IMG/VR virus record: IMGVR_UViG_2645727717_000001
Reading direction: 5' to 3' (one strand)
Length of the DNA: 7,037 nt
DNA from: a virus
Taxonomy: Monodnaviria; Loebvirae; Hofneiviricota; Faserviricetes; Tubulavirales; Inoviridae
Both the position numbers and the translations under genes were made by a program. How positions within the stretch are numbered: the stretch's first letter is position 1; every line of letters begins with the position of its first letter. Shown piece after piece: positions 394-7,037 of this stretch. A model generated the notes under the pieces. It searched no databases and was not told the DNA's origin. It worked only from the letters and a program-made list of their open reading frames with translations.

Positions 394-421
394 ATTTAAC
401 ATAATATACATTATGCGCACC
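394..421 (-). other. dif: dif chromosome-dimer resolution site (XerC/XerD target), exact 28-mer
   Basis: Plus strand 394..421 is ATTTAACATAATATACATTATGCGCACC, the exact reverse complement of the canonical E. coli dif GGTGCGCATAA-TGTATA-TTATGTTAAAT. XerD arm = 394..404, central region = 405..410, XerC arm = 411..421. Confidence 0.9.
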
Positions 422-581: not shown

Positions 582-719
582 TCCAGTTGCAGTTGGTAAA
601 TCTGTACCTGATACATGAAACCTTCCCCAGAAATACAGCCACAATGTCAGATAAGATGAACGCTGCCGCGCCGAATCAGCTATAACGCTCAAAATGAAAA
701 CTGTACGGCTTGGCCAACC

Positions 720-755
720 CCGGACAGCAACAAAACGAGTTTTGTCACTGACCGG
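720..755. repeat. 36-bp imperfect palindrome with symmetric mismatches
   Basis: CCGG-a-CAG-ca-ACAAAAC-ga-GTTTTGT-ca-CTG-a-CCGG. The arms pair except at symmetric 1-nt and 2-nt positions, which would give internal loops in a single-stranded fold. Confidence 0.45.
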
Positions 756-801
756 AGTTTACGATAACTTCGTAAGCATTAAATTTTAGCGGCTAAAAAG
801 T

Positions 802-1050
802 TCACCACCACCATGCAAACGGCTTGTTACTGACAGGAAATGCGATACCGTCAGCATCACGACCACGCAAGACCTGATTAAGAAGCTTTCTGACTTCACG
901 GCGCTCTGGCCGGGTCATCATCATATTGCGATACCAGGACGGTGATTTATCAAACCACCTGGAACAACTGGTAAAATGTGAACTAACACGACGGTAAGAC
1001 TTCATGCGACCACTGGGGAGTCGATCGCGCACCCTGCTTTTTACAGACAT
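802..1050 (-). CDS. Hypothetical small basic protein (82 aa), unknown function
   Basis: Only open frame >=60 aa in the region between gIV and dif. ATG at 1048..1050 with GAGG 8 nt upstream and a 21-bp palindrome just upstream. Arg-rich with a C-terminal WWW. No similarity recognised by eye; could be spurious. Confidence 0.3.
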   Translation of the reverse strand: MSVKSRVRDRLPSGRMKSYRRVSSHFTSCSRWFDKSPSWYRNMMMTRPERREVRKLLNQVLRGRDADGIAFPVSNKPFAWWW

Positions 1051-1059
1051 AAAAAACCT

Positions 1060-1080
1060 CTAAGTAATTGAATTACCTAG
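1060..1080. promoter_or_regulatory. Near-perfect 21-bp palindrome, candidate operator
   Basis: CTAAGTAATTgAATTACCTAG; core GTAATT/AATTAC is perfect around a single central base. Lies ~10 bp upstream of the ATG of the 802..1050 ORF on the minus strand. Confidence 0.4.
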
Positions 1081-1119
1081 AAGATGTCTTTCTGTTCATA
1101 TCCTGTCAGTTTTAAGGCC

Positions 1120-1200
1120 ATATAGAGGCTCCGTGGTGAAACGTAAAATCCGGCTCTTGATGTGGCCATACCGGGGCTTAACGCACCCGCCACGGCCCCA
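1120..1200 (-). other. GC-rich dyad-symmetry region immediately downstream of gIV (candidate terminator or packaging/origin hairpins)
   Basis: GGGGC...GCCCC and CCGTGG...CCACGG inverted repeats, two TGGCCA palindromes. Position corresponds to the start of the Ff intergenic region. No clear U-tract. Confidence 0.3.
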
Positions 1201-2466
1201 TCAAAGCGCGCGAATAATATGAGCGGTCAGCAGAACATACATAATGCGTTGCTCATTACTGTCAGCTTTACTCCTGAAAAGCCAGCCAATCACCGGAATT
1301 TTACTGATAAACGGTACAGAACGGTCAGCATTGCTGGATGATGAATCAATCAGCCCACCAAGTAAGAGCGTCTGGCCATCCTTAATCTGAACTGTTGTCT
1401 GTATCTGACGCTGGTTCGTAATAATATCAGATGCCTGGTCATCGTTGCTGATGGAATCAGCGCGGGTATCAATAGTAAGTACAAGCTGGCCGTTCCCCAT
1501 AACAACAGGCGTCACCTTCAGAGATACGCCAACATCATGACGTTCAATGGTCTGAAACGGATTATTTACCCCGGCAGATTCACCCGTAACTTTACCCGTG
1601 ATAAAGGGTACATTTTTACCAACAGAAATATAGCCTGTCTGACCAGACTGGGTAAGAATCCGGGGCGTTGAAATCACCTTAGACCGGGAGTTACTCTGCA
1701 CCGCACGCAGGGATACGGCCAGAACATTACCATCAAAAATGCCAAAAGAGCCGCCGGCAGTCGACAATGCGCTACCCAATGCTGAAGTATTAAAGCCCCC
1801 TGCTACTTTATGCCCGGATGCAGAACCGGCTGCAAACGACAAATCAACACCATCCGACAGACTGGTTTCAAACATCAGCGACTGAATCAAAACCTGATCG
1901 CGGGCAACATCCACTGAATTGATGAAATCGGAAAGGACGGGAAGCAGCTCATCAGGTGCGGAAACAATCAGGGAGTTATTGCCAGGATAATCCACAACAT
2001 TACCCCCGCCATTAGAATCCAGATAAATTTTAACCAGTTGCTGAACATCAGACGATCGAACTTTTGTCAGCTTAAAATTTCTGACAGTAAACTCCACTGG
2101 CGCTGGCTGATAAGATGGCTCAGACGGGAAAGAGTCATAAGACCGAATATCAGCATCATCAAGGTCTGACGCCATCTGTGATGGTAATTTTGACGGCAAA
2201 GAGACTACTGCAGGATTACCCGAAAGCATGACAAATCCGTTAGCATTCAGTACAGATTTGAAGAAACTATCAATATTTGTGGGATTAACATCAGCATTAA
2301 ATACCGTTACGGTTCCTTTAACATCAGGATTAACAATAACGGGCTTGCCAGTTTTTGATGAATACCACTGGACAAATGAGCGAACGGATGAATTATTCAG
2401 GTTAACAGTTTCAGCAGAAACGCAAAAAGAATAAGTGAATAAGATAGCAATGAAAAATAAACGCAT
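1201..2466 (-). CDS. IV: pIV outer-membrane secretin for phage extrusion (421 aa)
   Basis: Collinear similarity to M13 pIV from the signal peptide through the C-terminal ...YVLLTAHIIRAL (M13 ...YVLVKATIVRAL), including GTVTVF, GGSFGIFDGNVL, PFITGKVTGESAGVNNPFQTIER, QTLLLGGL. Start taken at the internal Met (MRLFFIAILF..., ATG 2464..2466) with AGGAG 9 nt upstream; the longer track ORF would overlap gI. Confidence 0.93.
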   Translation of the reverse strand: MRLFFIAILFTYSFCVSAETVNLNNSSVRSFVQWYSSKTGKPVIVNPDVKGTVTVFNADVNPTNIDSFFKSVLNANGFVMLSGNPAVVSLPSKLPSQMASDLDDADIRSYDSFPSEPSYQPAPVEFTVRNFKLTKVRSSDVQQLVKIYLDSNGGGNVVDYPGNNSLIVSAPDELLPVLSDFINSVDVARDQVLIQSLMFETSLSDGVDLSFAAGSASGHKVAGGFNTSALGSALSTAGGSFGIFDGNVLAVSLRAVQSNSRSKVISTPRILTQSGQTGYISVGKNVPFITGKVTGESAGVNNPFQTIERHDVGVSLKVTPVVMGNGQLVLTIDTRADSISNDDQASDIITNQRQIQTTVQIKDGQTLLLGGLIDSSSSNADRSVPFISKIPVIGWLFRSKADSNEQRIMYVLLTAHIIRAL

Positions 2467-2473
2467 AATAATA

Positions 2474-2848
2474 TTACTCCTGGCAGGTGATGTTTTGTAA
2501 ATAACGGCCTTTTCTGATAACAATTCGGCAGGCATCTTTAATATCAACAGAATAACCATCTTTAATTAAATCAAAATACTGGTACTTCATACCCTTAGCA
2601 TCAACAAACGTAACGGAAACATCAAAACCAAGTTGAGAGAAGGAATTAATTGATAGTCTCGGTAAATCGCTGGTACTGTCAGGAGTTACTGCCCTCACCT
2701 GTTCAGCATGAGCAGATTTAATAGCCGAAATCTCATCAGCATTCTTACCAGATTGTAGCCAGAAGCCAAGTCCAAGCCCCAATGCCAGAAATGAAAGCAT
2801 TAATATTAATCGGTTTGATTTTCGAAAGTAAATTTTCGTGAGGCGCAT
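2474..2848 (-). CDS. XI: pXI, in-frame internal start within gI (124 aa)
   Basis: Met241 of pI (MRLTKIYFRK...) aligns with the M13 pXI initiator Met241 (MKLTKIYLKK...) and is followed by a hydrophobic transmembrane stretch. ATG at 2846..2848. Confidence 0.5.
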   Translation of the reverse strand: MRLTKIYFRKSNRLILMLSFLALGLGLGFWLQSGKNADEISAIKSAHAEQVRAVTPDSTSDLPRLSINSFSQLGFDVSVTFVDAKGMKYQYFDLIKDGYSVDIKDACRIVIRKGRYLQNITCQE

Positions 2849-3568
2849 ATAATAATTAAACCCTTTGTTAACGGAAAACTGACCATGTGTAATAAATGGC
2901 GGCAAAAGCGAATAAGCACCATGCGGATAATTATCAGTAAAAGCCTGTTTTGTATTGTAGGCGGAATATAATGACTTTCCGGTATACATCCATTTATCAA
3001 CAGTTATTGAATTAACGTTGTCACCATATTTAACAATACCAAAGTGAACCTTTGGTAAAGAAAAACGAGCACCTGAAATTATATTCATGAAAGAACCAAT
3101 AAATGGGATGTTTAACTTATCTGAACGACGACAATAAACAACATGCTCCGCAAGCGCCAGCCGTGCTTGCTTGTCCATAATCGAAATATCCTGAATCAGA
3201 AAAATAATATCCCAGCCTAATTTACGGGCATGCAAAAACCAGTCAATAACTGGCTGTCTGTCTTTATCCCCCCACGAACGGGAATTAAACCAAGTCCCAC
3301 ATTCATCAAGAACCAGTAGACCATTACGTGATTCATCATAGGAAGTATTGCCTACACCAATAGCCAGCAGATCATTTAATGAAGGTTTGTCAGGGACACG
3401 AATCACGCGTGTTTTTTTCGCATAACGACCAACCATGGGCATATTATGTAGTTTAATATCTAGATTAGTGGCTACAGGACAGCCTTTAGCTAGTCTTTCC
3501 TGTATTCTGGCAACACTAACCAGTGTCTTACCTGAACCTAATTTCCCTGTTACGACATGAACCGTCAT
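2474..3568 (-). CDS. I: pI assembly ATPase (Zot-like), inner-membrane morphogenesis protein (364 aa)
   Basis: N-terminus MTVHVVTGKLGSGKTLVSV... closely matches M13 pI MAVYFVTGKLGSGKTLVSV.... Walker A GKLGSGKT at 3524..3547. Long identical runs (GLLVLDECGTWFN, QPVIDWFLHARKLGWDIIFL, DKQARLALAEHVVYCRR). RBS AAGGTGA upstream; the ATG abuts the gVI stop. Confidence 0.95.
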   Translation of the reverse strand: MTVHVVTGKLGSGKTLVSVARIQERLAKGCPVATNLDIKLHNMPMVGRYAKKTRVIRVPDKPSLNDLLAIGVGNTSYDESRNGLLVLDECGTWFNSRSWGDKDRQPVIDWFLHARKLGWDIIFLIQDISIMDKQARLALAEHVVYCRRSDKLNIPFIGSFMNIISGARFSLPKVHFGIVKYGDNVNSITVDKWMYTGKSLYSAYNTKQAFTDNYPHGAYSLLPPFITHGQFSVNKGFNYYMRLTKIYFRKSNRLILMLSFLALGLGLGFWLQSGKNADEISAIKSAHAEQVRAVTPDSTSDLPRLSINSFSQLGFDVSVTFVDAKGMKYQYFDLIKDGYSVDIKDACRIVIRKGRYLQNITCQE

Positions 3569-3910
3569 TCAAATCACCTTGTTTGCATAATCAAGGAATT
3601 TTTGTTTTAAATCGAAAACAAAAACGCTAATTCGAGTAATCATAATGACATTAACACAGGCCTGAAAATGGTCTGGTAAGACAGATGCAATTAAATGTGA
3701 AAAATCAGCAGGAAGGCCATTGTACATAACCTCAGCAAGATATTGCATTAAGAGAGTGACAGTTGTTGTAATTAATGCAACTAATGCTACAGCTATCAAT
3801 CCTGTTTTAGTCGCAAGGCGTGCGAGGAAGCTTGCCACATAGCCAATAAATAAAGGAACAAGCCCAATAAGAAAACGCAATAGTGCAGGAATACCTAATA
3901 ATAAAGGCAT
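3569..3910 (-). CDS. VI: pVI minor coat protein (113 aa)
   Basis: MPLLLGIPALLRFLIGL... vs M13 pVI MPVLLGIPLLLRFLGFL...; C-terminal FVFDLKQK vs FIFDVKQK. The ATG overlaps the gIII stop (TAATG). Confidence 0.9.
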   Translation of the reverse strand: MPLLLGIPALLRFLIGLVPLFIGYVASFLARLATKTGLIAVALVALITTTVTLLMQYLAEVMYNGLPADFSHLIASVLPDHFQACVNVIMITRISVFVFDLKQKFLDYANKVI

Positions 3911-5153
3911 TACTCACCTCCTTTACGAAGTAATGAGGTTAAAGACGTAAATACATACCAGAAGGTAAGGCAATAAAAAATCCATGAAAGCGCATCTTTG
4001 ATAGTAAGTAATTTATCGCATTCAATATCAATCTGATAAATTTCACCGGGGAAAATAACAAGTTCAGAACAACCATTACCATTAGGTAAACTAGGGAGCA
4101 TAGCACCTTTATTCAGGAATGCTTCCCATAAAGCACCATGAGAATCTTTAGCTATTCCTAATTCGGATTCAGCCAATGTTGAAGCACTGTCTAATTCGGA
4201 ATCCCCTTTCCCATAACGAGAATCACCGCCAGAAGGATCAGCAAAACGTCCGGCTCCGCGAGTAAGGTTATTTATAGCGTCACCAAGACGATTTATATTA
4301 TTTTTAGTCTGTTCATCAGCCGATTTTTTATCATCAGATGAGGTGTCTTTTTCTGTTAACTTATCATGAATCTCACTGGCCATTTTAGGTGAAGCACCTT
4401 CAATAGCTGACTGAATATCTCCTTTGGTAATACTTGAGCCATTACCACCTGAGTTACCGCCACCTGAGTTACCACCGCCTGTATCACCTCCTCCAGTATC
4501 ACCACCCCCCGTATCCCCGCCTCCAGTATCCCCACCATCGCCAGCAGGAGAAGAAGGCTTATCTGAAGGATCGGCTACGGTTCCGGTAGGCTTCCATGTC
4601 GCCGCACAAACAGTGCCATCACCCTGGCAAACAATGACGCCAGTGGCCTCATATTCACAACCGTTATAATAAATATAACGATCACCATCATAAGATAGAC
4701 ATTATTAAATACACCTTCTTCAGGAGGTTTAGCTTCACAAATTTCTTCAGGTGTAGGCTCGGAGGGTTTTTCATCAGGAATAGAACGCTGAATATCACCG
4801 ATAATATAAGCGGTTAAATTCCAGTATTTATCTTTCTGGCCCGGAGAGTCGCTGTAGGTACAAGCGTCAGAAAACACAAGACGGAATTCAGAGTTAGGCC
4901 ATACTCCCTCATAAGTTGGTTTAACCTGAGTAAAAACACCCTGAGCACTGTCTTTAGCCCCCTGACAGGCAGAAGCCTGCATAGCTGCATCAATATAATA
5001 AACAGTTTGTTTAGTGCCATCTTGGTTGGTTATTTGCTTACTTTCAGAATAGGCAGAGCTTTGAAAAGTAGATTTAGTAATGCTTTCCCATGAATCAGCA
5101 TGTGAAAAAGAAGAAATAAGAATAGCGGAAATAATTAATATTTTCCTTTTCAT
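3910..5153 (-). pseudogene. III: pIII adsorption / minor coat protein, split across two frames by an apparent 1-nt deletion near 4698
   Basis: Frame A (5153 -> stop 4575): signal peptide MKRKILIISAILISSFSHA, ~150-aa N-terminal domain, Pro/Glu-rich linker, ...[16 protein letters not shown], then nonsense. Frame B (open 4701 -> 3913): [39 protein letters not shown] (cf. M13 N1 DRYANYEGCLWNATGVVVCTGDETQCYGTWVPIG), Gly-rich linker, C-terminal domain ending ...LPSLP...IDCDKL...FWYVFTSL. Span is 1244 nt, i.e. 3n+2. Confidence 0.8.
4444..4533 (-). repeat. Six imperfect 15-bp tandem repeats encoding the pIII Gly-rich linker
   Basis: Minus strand GGGGATACTGGAGGC / GGGGATACGGGGGGT / GGTGATACTGGAGGA / GGTGATACAGGCGGT / GGTAACTCAGGTGGC / GGTAACTCAGGTGGT, encoding (GGDTG)x4 then (GGNSG)x2. 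Confidence 0.8.
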
Positions 5154-5160
5154 AATAACC

Positions 5161-5199: not shown

Positions 5200-5442
5200 T
5201 TAAACTGCTTTCGAAGAGAACTTTTTAAACAAACGAATGGCAAGACCCGCACCAACGACAGCGACAACAGCAGGCCATACTTTTGCAATAAGATCGTTTG
5301 CCTGAGTCAGCAGTGAATCCATTGCCTGACCTGCATAGTCAGTGCTACCCGTTGCGCCATCAGCAGCAAAACAACTTGCAGAAACAAAAAGTGCGGTTGA
5401 AGCCACAGCAATTTTAGATTTAATAACAGAAATGACTTTCAT
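5200..5442 (-). CDS. VIII: pVIII major coat protein precursor (80 aa)
   Basis: Signal peptide MKVISVIKSKIAVASTALFVSASCFA, acidic mature N-terminus ADGATG..., hydrophobic core, basic C-terminus LFKKFSSKAV (M13: LFKKFTSKAS). RBS GGAG 9 nt upstream. Confidence 0.93.
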   Translation of the reverse strand: MKVISVIKSKIAVASTALFVSASCFAADGATGSTDYAGQAMDSLLTQANDLIAKVWPAVVAVVGAGLAIRLFKKFSSKAV

Positions 5443-5655: not shown

Positions 5656-5973
5656 TTAACCTTTTATTTCAGTGATCCCACCATCTGATGAAATATTATA
5701 AGTCACACCTTCTCTACCCTCCATTGACCAGACACGAACATATACAGGGATTTGAACTAATTTCCCCGTAAAACTATTGGCTTGATTCATGACTCCGGCG
5801 TTCACAAGGGACTGTGATACACGAATAATTATTTGGTCTTGCTTAGTACCGCCAAAACCATCAGGGATCTCTAAACCGATACCAATTTCATTGTAATAGC
5901 CCTGACCATTGACTTTATTACGCTGACGAGCACCAAGCATTTTACCTTTTACAAAAAGACCATAATTAGACAT
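5656..5973 (-). CDS. Putative ssDNA-binding protein, gV positional analog (105 aa); no resemblance to Ff pV
   Basis: Sits between the replication initiator and gVII exactly where gV lies in Ff. AAGGAG RBS 7 nt upstream of the ATG. Function assigned by position only. Confidence 0.5.
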   Translation of the reverse strand: MSNYGLFVKGKMLGARQRNKVNGQGYYNEIGIGLEIPDGFGGTKQDQIIIRVSQSLVNAGVMNQANSFTGKLVQIPVYVRVWSMEGREGVTYNISSDGGITEIKG

Positions 5974-5984
5974 ATCACGCTCCT

Positions 5985-7037
5985 TTAATGCCAGTTACTG
6001 GCATGTGAAATACGGTTGTAATCAAAAATAAAACCTTTCTCATAAACCCATGTAGGGATTTGGGCTGGTTTAGCTTCAAGTGTTCTTACTAATGGAACAA
6101 CATTATTTGAATCAGGGGATTCACAATAAAAATTAATATCTATCCCGAAAGACAATAATTCTTTTCGGTGCCTGTAAAATGTTGGCTTTGGAAGCATTTC
6201 TTTCATGTTTGCGCCCTGCTTCCACAGTAAATATGTTGATTGTATTTTTCTCGGCAGTTTAACTATTTTTTCATCGGTCAAAATGGCATTTTGATTCATT
6301 TCTATTCTCCCTACATATTCAGAGAATAATTTGTTTGGAGTATCGATATTCCAGTTACTGCCAAGCGTAAGGTTTAAGTCAATTAATTCTGTTGTTCTTA
6401 GCGTCAATTCAATTCGTAATTTATCTTTAGACCAGTCAAGTAAGCCAGCTTTAACAAACTCTTCTGCTATCTGGTGTCCTTTTTTACCAGAAATATGCTC
6501 ATCATATTTTGAATAAAATTTCAGGCTCCACCGCCGGGAGTTTTTCCCTAAGTAAACAGTTCCACCTTTACCACAGGCGCGACCATGGCGAGTTTTAGCC
6601 TTGAATTCTGCGGCATATAGCCATGCGCGGACATTTTCCAGCGTTGATAATGAATACATGTAGTTAATATCAATGCGTGAGATCTTAAATTGCCCTGCCA
6701 TTACCTGACGATAGGATGGTAGATCATGAGGAATATGAAGTAATGCCAATATTCTTGCGTAAGCGGTTAATACCAGCCCCTGCAAATCATCGGAGCCAAT
6801 AACAGAATGCCCCTGAAGAAATTTTGACGGATTTCCGTCAATATAAAGATGAGTTGCCCGGCCCTCCCCGTCTGATCCAACAGATCGTACTTTCATTGTG
6901 GATTCGTATGAACCGCGAACGGTCAACCGCTTTACTGTTTCCCACTCCACTGCACCGTCAGCATCAACGCTGACGACACTACCGGCCGGTAACGGTCGGT
7001 GTGTGCAAGGAAGAATTCCGGTAAACCAGTCGATCAT
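5985..7037 (-). CDS. II: Rolling-circle replication initiator, gII equivalent (350 aa), likely of the RstA / Phage_CRI type rather than Ff pII
   Basis: Large ORF upstream of the gV analog beginning MIDWFTGILP...; no collinear similarity to M13 pII beyond MID. The ATG is the last 3 nt of the window, so an upstream extension cannot be excluded. Family assignment is from memory of N-terminal motifs. Confidence 0.75.
   Translation of the reverse strand: MIDWFTGILPCTHRPLPAGSVVSVDADGAVEWETVKRLTVRGSYESTMKVRSVGSDGEGRATHLYIDGNPSKFLQGHSVIGSDDLQGLVLTAYARILALLHIPHDLPSYRQVMAGQFKISRIDINYMYSLSTLENVRAWLYAAEFKAKTRHGRACGKGGTVYLGKNSRRWSLKFYSKYDEHISGKKGHQIAEEFVKAGLLDWSKDKLRIELTLRTTELIDLNLTLGSNWNIDTPNKLFSEYVGRIEMNQNAILTDEKIVKLPRKIQSTYLLWKQGANMKEMLPKPTFYRHRKELLSFGIDINFYCESPDSNNVVPLVRTLEAKPAQIPTWVYEKGFIFDYNRISHASNWH

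Follow-up and report, generated by a model that had tools for sequence, protein, structure and literature searches.

In the tap-repA system of the IncFII plasmid R1 and the repY-repZ system of IncIα/IncB plasmids, a leader open reading frame (ORF) has to be translated so that a stem sequestering the ribosome-binding site (RBS) of the gene behind it is opened; the leader ends at a stop codon near or within the structure. Here we describe a gene of a filamentous Escherichia coli prophage that is probably controlled in a comparable way. The gene, ORF82, encodes 82 amino acids (aa) at positions 802..1050 on the minus strand of a 7,037-nt stretch of DNA, the IMG/VR virus record IMGVR_UViG_2645727717_000001 (Inoviridae), which we refer to in its full length as the window. 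A first-pass annotation of the window had noted a near-perfect 21-bp palindrome directly 5' of ORF82. As judged by the conservation of the region, this palindrome is best read as a translational gate, that is, as a hairpin between a leader ORF and the ORF82 RBS that couples the translation of the two, instead of as a DNA operator, and we consider this reading probable. By analogy, the anatomy of the locus appears to match that of tap-repA and repY-repZ: a leader with its own Shine-Dalgarno (SD) sequence, the leader stop in the 5' arm of the stem and the SD of the main gene in the 3' arm. Unlike in those systems, the controlled gene is not a replication initiator, and neither an antisense RNA nor a pseudoknot partner was identified here.

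The gene itself is already known as a hypothetical ORF; what is new here is the leader, the logic of the hairpin, the breadth of the protein family and its linkage to tRNA genes. ORFs at the position of ORF82 have been reported in dif-integrating enterobacterial inoviruses (PMC4266046, PMC7307601): YPO2280a and YPO2281 of YpfΦ, with homologues in CUS-1 (PMC4266046), and h1 and h2 of UPΦ901 (PMC7307601), all described as ORFs with 'no predictable function'. These ORFs share the position of ORF82, with the secretin gene on one side and the dif-side prophage end on the other; in the parts of the two papers that were read, the leader ORF and the hairpin are unmentioned. By position only, the published counterpart of ORF82 is probably YPO2280a. 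The assumption of the first-pass annotation that this intergenic region normally carries no genes holds for Ff and IKe phages but, according to the same two papers, fails for dif-integrating enterobacterial inoviruses. In RefSeq, the ORF82 protein of a near-identical E. coli prophage is labelled as a hypothetical protein (WP_071792182.1), and we found no functional work in the literature on YPO2280a/YPO2281 or on start-stop, upstream-ORF or tRNA-associated phage leaders.

ORF82, its leader and the intervening hairpin

ORF82 starts with ATG and encodes an arginine-rich protein, MSVKSRVRDRLPSGR...KPFAWWW, with 14 Arg and 5 Lys residues, an isoelectric point of 11.6 and a high tryptophan content, in agreement with the first-pass annotation. 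The 'reasonable RBS' of that annotation is the SD sequence AGAGG (1057..1061, minus strand), 6 nt 5' of the ATG and inside the 3' arm of the hairpin. The placement of the ORF between gene IV and dif was likewise correct: gene IV ends at 1201 and a perfect dif occupies 394-421. Since the window also contains many spurious ORFs of 60-80 aa, the length of 82 aa alone is unremarkable. Homologues with 61-100% identity are found in inovirus prophages and replicative forms of E. coli, Salmonella, Pantoea, Yersinia pestis, Brenneria and Xenorhabdus and in metagenomes; the Y. pestis homologue (L006/L007) is 82 aa long and 82% identical to ORF82. All 25 distinct homologous coding sequences (CDS), from six genera, have exactly 82 codons without a single indel. 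Their variable sites follow a period of three (43/38/72 by codon position), and the pairwise ratio of nonsynonymous to synonymous substitution rates (dN/dS) has a median of 0.14 and a maximum of 0.30. Judged by these alignments, ORF82 is a real gene under strong purifying selection.

Of 5426 complete E. coli genomes, 116 carry ORF82, usually as two copies in tandem. The gene was also met once on a 9.6-kb circular replicative form: E. coli TUM14759 has an 'untypable plasmid' of 9,565 bp (NZ_CP128883.1, L109) that is a complete circular CUS-1-type replicative form with an ORF82 homologue. Phages that share the gene differ in their structural and replication modules, which are IKe-like in the window, CUS-1/Ypf-like in L002 and L109 and of the Rep_trans type in L003. 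A tblastn search of GenBank phages detected no ORF82 gene in IKe, I2-2, M13 or other phages, in line with PMC7307601; for ORF82 and two distant family members, the sole match in this search was one unverified 3.6-kb Salmonella contig. Because the non-integrating IKe, I2-2 and M13 manage without the gene, ORF82 appears dispensable for replication and assembly.

We aligned the 170 nt 5' of ORF82 in 17 relatives. The SD region TTAGAGG is nearly invariant, and conservation continues for about 27 nt beyond the palindrome with the pattern GGN TAY GAR CAR nnn GAY ATY TTC TAG. This is the end of a leader ORF of 14 codons, MALKLTGYEQKDIF* (1077..1121, minus strand), with its UAG stop at 1079..1077 in the 5' arm of the hairpin and its own SD sequence GGAG (1129..1132, minus strand) 7 nt 5' of its ATG. 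A leader of 13-14 codons with the consensus M-x4-5-GYEQxDIF* is present in 25/25 distinct upstream sequences (GYEMQDIF* in L043); it varies at synonymous third positions and by one in-frame codon insertion, and its stop is separated from the ORF82 ATG by 24-29 nt. The leader carries no RefSeq annotation. A 38-aa GTG-started ORF (1077-1193) was considered as the true upstream gene and rejected, since its N-terminal part is not conserved in relatives. As GYEQ, 5' of the stem, is conserved as a peptide, the nascent leader chain may also matter, for example by pausing at termination.

The palindrome was found as described, with arms at 1059-1069 and 1071-1081 that are 91% complementary (one mismatch pair) and separated by a 1-nt spacer. 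It is not statistically exceptional on its own: in simulations about one palindrome of this quality is expected per 7 kb, the window contains three distinct ones as compared to a simulated mean of 1.0, and the raw count of four overlapping hits was reached in 5.5% of the simulations. What lifts ORF82 and its palindrome above chance is conservation: across related prophages the ORF is uninterrupted (dN/dS 0.14) and the palindrome is kept as a hairpin with compensatory changes. Folding and pair counts place the palindrome (1059-1081) as the core of an RBS-sequestering hairpin, CUUCUAGGUAAUU-C-AAUUACUUAGAGG (1057..1083, minus strand), whose 5' arm holds the last codons of the leader (Asp-Ile-Phe) and the UAG and whose 3' arm holds the ORF82 SD. 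Counted over 18 distinct sequences and nine pairs (162 stem cells), 97.5% of the cells are paired in the mRNA sense as compared to 37-62% in slid controls. Wobble pairs, G·U or U·G, make up 37 of the 162 cells (~23%); they exist in the sense strand alone, and the other strand would have A·C mismatches in their place; two stem positions are U·G in 15/18 and G·U in 14/18 sequences. Two pairs show compensatory double changes, from G-C to A-U or U-A. Furthermore, folds of single sequences place a stem of 12-16 bp over the SD in 18/18 relatives, with energies from -9 to -17 kcal/mol and z-scores from -1.6 to -6.5.

RNAalifold additionally predicts an outer helix (alignment positions 16-20 with 57-61), in which GACAU of the leader's Asp-Ile codons (1084-1088) pairs with AUGUC, the ORF82 start codon and the 2 nt that follow it (1046..1050, minus strand). 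Minimum-free-energy folds show this outer helix for the E. coli/Yersinia/Brenneria clade, whereas Xenorhabdus-clade sequences pair GAUAU with an AUAUC directly after the SD. Taken as sequence patterns, these results support the palindrome as a conserved functional element tied to ORF82 expression.

The cassette (802-1132, minus strand), composed of the 14-codon leader with its SD, the hairpin and ORF82, would form a self-contained accessory unit. In the free mRNA the stem would hide the SD and the outer helix the AUG (or, in some clades, the nucleotides right after the SD), so that ORF82 would remain silent. A ribosome reaching the leader stop would melt the stem and expose the SD and the AUG 24-29 nt downstream, and ORF82 output would then be proportional to translation of the leader, by translational coupling or re-initiation. 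We infer this coupling mechanism, as well as any role of the leader peptide and the activity of the protein; coupling is suggested because the stem is strand-specific and holds the leader stop in its 5' arm and the ORF82 SD in its 3' arm. Crude scans for an antisense RNA found no promoter-like site on the opposite strand between 1000 and 1200 and no Rfam match, Rfam giving only sub-threshold noise for 380-1300.

A looser analogy is provided by the attenuation of ermC and cat/cmlA, where a conserved short leader peptide likewise directly precedes an SD-hiding hairpin; the conservation of the GYEQxDIF peptide similarly hints at an effect of the nascent chain. In contrast to these systems, the ORF82 leader has no known inducer, any stall would fall at the stop codon, and many leaders of the wider family described below have only 1-3 codons (M*, MT*, MRF*) and are incapable of exit-tunnel arrest. 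An RNA hairpin that contains an RBS and controls a phage gene is also seen in the MS2 coat/replicase hairpin and in the action of f1 gene V protein on gene II mRNA. As a hypothesis only, and by analogy with such phage translational operators, ORF82 might bind its own leader hairpin.

A wider family with mini-uORFs and adjacent tRNA genes

A profile built from the inovirus proteins matches 153 cluster representatives at E<1e-3. The proteins are 60-130 aa long and have in common a C-terminal module that spans about 50 residues and runs to the end of the protein, (S/T)PSWW-N--MTRP-RR----L--V--G-D-D--FPL--KPH-YYW; no member is named or has a Pfam domain. Tailed phages, jumbo-sized contigs among them, encode members in early or accessory regions; other members lie beside phd-doc in a myovirus-like prophage, on a Rep3 plasmid-like contig and in a tyrosine-integrase island of a GC-rich genome. 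On the evidence of these contexts, the family is not specific to Xer/dif elements.

In all six distant loci inspected first, an upstream ORF (uORF) of 9-12 codons directly precedes the family gene. Mostly, a stem covers the main SD and its 5' arm contains or adjoins the uORF stop; in L047/L048 the uORF stop directly overlaps the main SD. Two of these uORFs end in ...QDIF* or ...EDIF*. Among distant members, L050 has MHYLDQDIF* and a stem onto GGAG, L049 has MVKHYRKALDAL* and a stem onto AGAGG, and in L076/78, where the leader ends in ...AEDIF*, GGACAUUUU pairs with AAAAUGUCC. Extending the comparison to 46 further distinct viral loci, we find in 29 of them a mini-uORF that is led by an SD and stops 14-22 nt short of the main ATG, as compared to 32/340 (9%) for control ORFs of these contigs. 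Read at their shortest, the mini-uORFs have 9-10 codons at most and in the smallest cases are MRF*, MT* or a bare ATG-TAG (L092); for two, the call began at a GTG further upstream, giving 18-20 codons. The stop is TAG in 24/29 as compared to 8/32 controls. In the leaders of L052-L107 an RTA recurs right after the stop (TAGGTA or TAGATA) and is complementary to the region of the main start; in most mini-uORFs the sequence around the stop can pair with the main SD or start codon, as with GACAUAG and CUAUGUC or UAGAUA and UGUCUA. Because distant members with the same pairing have no single-stranded DNA (ssDNA) stage, the hairpin would act in RNA.

Furthermore, in 19/47 distant loci a tRNA gene lies on the same strand 8-75 nt (mostly 46-56 nt) 5' of the family member. 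The anticodons of these tRNAs (L054-L103, L044) vary; many of the genes belong to arrays of 5-19, and those at L080, L100 and L103 stand alone. In one 71-kb viral contig with a family member (L058), a permuted tmRNA gene (1729-2124) is located within the tRNA region.

Searches with the protein itself, which the first-pass annotation had proposed together with structure prediction, uncovered this wide family; they yielded neither a named family nor a fold match. ORF82 has no family in Pfam (E<=10) or NCBIfam, and its PHROGs matches are two groups of unknown function, 12343 (E=4e-4) and 7840. Profile and structure searches of ORF82 detected no helix-turn-helix (HTH), ribbon-helix-helix (RHH) or other DNA-binding domain or fold, and Foldseek found no match for the ORF82 model in BFVD. 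Several candidates were set aside: a PADLOC match to JetB in one of 31 family members (17.8 bits), judged spurious; a PDB sequence-profile match to Prp4 (E=0.0055), which is of low complexity and not useful; the packaging-signal-binding protein PSB15 of Xanthomonas phages, which has another size and whose WAGFXF motif is missing from ORF82; and a type I toxin of the hok/mok kind, as ORF82 is highly basic and hydrophilic and has no hydrophobic segment.

Our best guess is that ORF82 is a tightly dosed accessory ('moron') protein that binds nucleic acid or the translation or RNA machinery, given its extreme basicity, the conserved Trp/Tyr-rich tail and the adjacency to tRNA genes in 19/47 loci. 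A broader and rather tentative idea, to which we give a small but real chance, is that ORF82 is the inovirus member of a widespread, undescribed family of phages and other mobile genetic elements that is universally gated by mini-uORFs (from 14 codons down to AUG-UAG), with the stop region, near-universally UAG and thus read only by release factor 1 (RF1), pairing with the main initiation site; the cassette might sense the state of host translation or termination and free a basic effector acting on tRNA, ribosomes or RNA. This sensing is suggested because ~40% of the distant members lie behind a tRNA gene, often within phage tRNA arrays.

Weighing of alternative explanations

Some observations weigh against the translational gate. 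Translation of the leader and its coupling to ORF82 are deduced from sequence alone. A promoter scan found none for the cassette, and a strong hairpin stands between the cassette and gene IV. The arms of the stem are also constrained by coding (Ile-Phe-stop) and by the SD, so that their complementarity may partly be a by-product and the support from covariation is moderate; double changes affect just 2/9 stem pairs; and in the subfamily with MRF*/MRL* leaders the folds are weak (z about -0.5). As for the protein, the deep-alignment AlphaFold fold (predicted local distance difference test, pLDDT, 76) matches nothing, which leaves its activity a guess. Finally, within inoviruses ORF82 always travels with the attachment-site (attP) segment, a point in favour of a function in integration.

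That the element is instead the double-stranded DNA (dsDNA) operator of an autoregulated DNA-binding protein, as the first-pass annotation proposed, would suit a small and very basic product and a conserved palindrome directly upstream of its gene, and symmetric changes in the two arms are also expected of a site bound by a dimer. However, the sense-only G·U wobbles would make the half-sites asymmetric in dsDNA, and the element lies within the leader stop and the SD and not over a promoter: no sigma-70-like promoter was found by scanning the minus strand over the hairpin or near 1050-1200. Distant relatives, moreover, retain complementarity between the uORF and the translation initiation region with wholly different sequences. 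With a strand-specific stem, no overlapping promoter and no DNA-binding fold, we regard an operator as very unlikely. The same annotation had allowed that ORF82 might be a spurious ORF in a non-coding intergenic region. While the want of a Pfam or NCBIfam family and the low AlphaFold confidence obtained for the single family (pLDDT 52 with a shallow alignment) are what such an ORF would show, the frame is intact and keeps its exact length down to ~61% aa identity (82 codons in 25/25), variation has a period of three with a dN/dS of 0.14, and 153 cluster representatives match the profile; we therefore reject this option as scarcely credible.

The palindrome could also be mainly a read-through terminator or attenuator of gene IV, or an ssDNA element of the viral strand such as a packaging signal or complementary-strand origin, in which case it would overlap the RBS incidentally. 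In Ff phages the packaging and origin hairpins come right after gene IV, the sense strand here is the packaged strand, and the window's stem runs into UUUUUU and was flagged as terminator-like. In relatives, however, this run is replaced by AUUAAUU, AUAUUUUU or GUAUCCCGA, and without conservation of the run the stem does not qualify as a conserved terminator. It is AT-rich, and a far stronger GC-rich hairpin with 19-nt arms lies over the gene IV stop (1157..1204, minus strand) and is the better candidate for a terminator and/or packaging-signal-like element. Pairing of a uORF with the RBS is also seen in dsDNA phages and plasmids, which pass through no ssDNA stage. An incidental overlap is, on balance, improbable.

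An accessory factor for Xer/dif integration or lysogeny, acting on the recombinase XerCD at attP as an analogue of XafT, was the other function proposed by the first-pass annotation. ORF82 is terminal or near-terminal on the XerC-arm side of attP/dif, and in most loci a dif-like site lies 125-1224 nt away in the same orientation. In CTXΦ, a CTX-type attP needs the host XerCD only and no phage-encoded factor. The phage attP, seen at the junction between the two prophage copies in E. coli SCPM-O-B-12142 (L001, 18395-18500), has two inverted dif-like sites, GGTTCGCACAA-TGACG-TTATGCTAAAG and TTTCAACATAA-CGAGTCGTACA-TTATGCGCACC, around a GC hairpin; by its sequence it is of the CTX-type forked-hairpin architecture, an arrangement previously proposed for YpfΦ (PMC4266046). 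According to PMC7307601, the non-integrating IKe and I2-2 have neither the dif site nor these ORFs, which favours integration, as does the location of xafT as the terminal gene beside attP in Vibrio IMEXs (mobile elements that use Xer to integrate; PMC12715192, PMC6744903). The Xer activation factor XafT (HTH and DUF3653; TLCΦ, CTX-I inoviruses) indeed resembles ORF82 as a small phage protein whose terminal gene lies beside a dif-like attP (PMC6744903, PMC12715192). Unlike XafT, ORF82 has no similarity to HTH or DUF3653 and is co-oriented with the assembly genes, its attP is not TLC-type (which has no proper XerD arm and so needs a XerD activator), and its family is widespread outside IMEXs. 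No DUF3653/XafT signal was found in ORF82 (Pfam, E<=10), in 31 family members (E<=1) or in the other prophage ORFs, and homologues occur in tailed phages, tRNA arrays, a Rep3 contig and tyrosine-integrase islands. With no DUF3653, a CTX-type attP and a family that extends beyond dif elements, a role in lysogeny or integration is not supported, and we consider it unlikely.

Prophage context and biological meaning

The window belongs to a dif-integrating filamentous prophage of the UPΦ/CUS-1/YpfΦ group. Positions 1-393 are E. coli chromosome, with an HTH pseudogene adjoining the ydeQRST fimbrial cluster, and the junction is marked by the perfect E. coli dif, ATTTAACATAA-TATACA-TTATGCGCACC (394-421, plus strand), with its XerD arm toward the chromosome and its XerC arm toward the phage. 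The prophage to the right of dif is read on the minus strand: gene II (5985-7037+, running to the end of the window), gene V (5656-5973), gene VIII (5200-5442), gene III (3910-5155), gene VI (3569-3910), gene I of the Zot family (2474-3568) and the secretin gene IV (1201-2466), which is the upstream neighbour of the ORF82 cassette. As compared to the tandem prophage of E. coli SCPM-O-B-12142, the window has just three differing positions. One 1-nt deletion relative to that prophage, at ~4694 in gene III (minus strand), leaves two frames, 3910-4383 and 4575-5155, and means that the prophage copy is defective or that the sequence contains an error.

Relatives of the CUS-1/Ypf type have a different GC-rich inverted repeat at the position of the 1157-1204 hairpin. 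Another hairpin, with 21-nt arms, lies ~45 nt 3' of the ORF82 stop (716..759); it is a candidate terminator or ssDNA/complementary-strand origin element and shows compensatory changes as compared to the UPΦ-like relative L004. The distance from the ORF82 stop to dif is 380 nt in the window. Here and in several relatives ORF82 is the gene closest to the attP/dif side; others have an extra ORF or cargo in between. The phage of the window lacks the second ORF of its relatives, which is a different 65-aa ORF in CUS-1-type phages and, in L004 (2123-2368), an 81-aa acidic ORF convergent with ORF82 and located between it and dif; where L004 has this 81-aa ORF, the window has ~100 nt of unrelated sequence (~585-700). 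As its contents differ between the window, UPΦ-like and CUS-1-type phages, the stretch between ORF82 and attP appears to be a variable cargo slot.

A link to fitness, of plague bacilli and of extra-intestinal E. coli, has been drawn for the YpfΦ, CUS-1 and UPΦ prophages, and reviews name the ORFs at the prophage ends as the unexplained part of these phages (PMC4266046, PMC7307601). The order SD, mini-ORF, UAG, SD, AUG-UCU provides a signature with which new family members can be searched for, and the adjacency of distant members to tRNA genes is a concrete functional lead. For the biology of these phages, the question would shift from a virulence or integration gene to a generic service that a tightly dosed small basic protein may provide to mobile elements.

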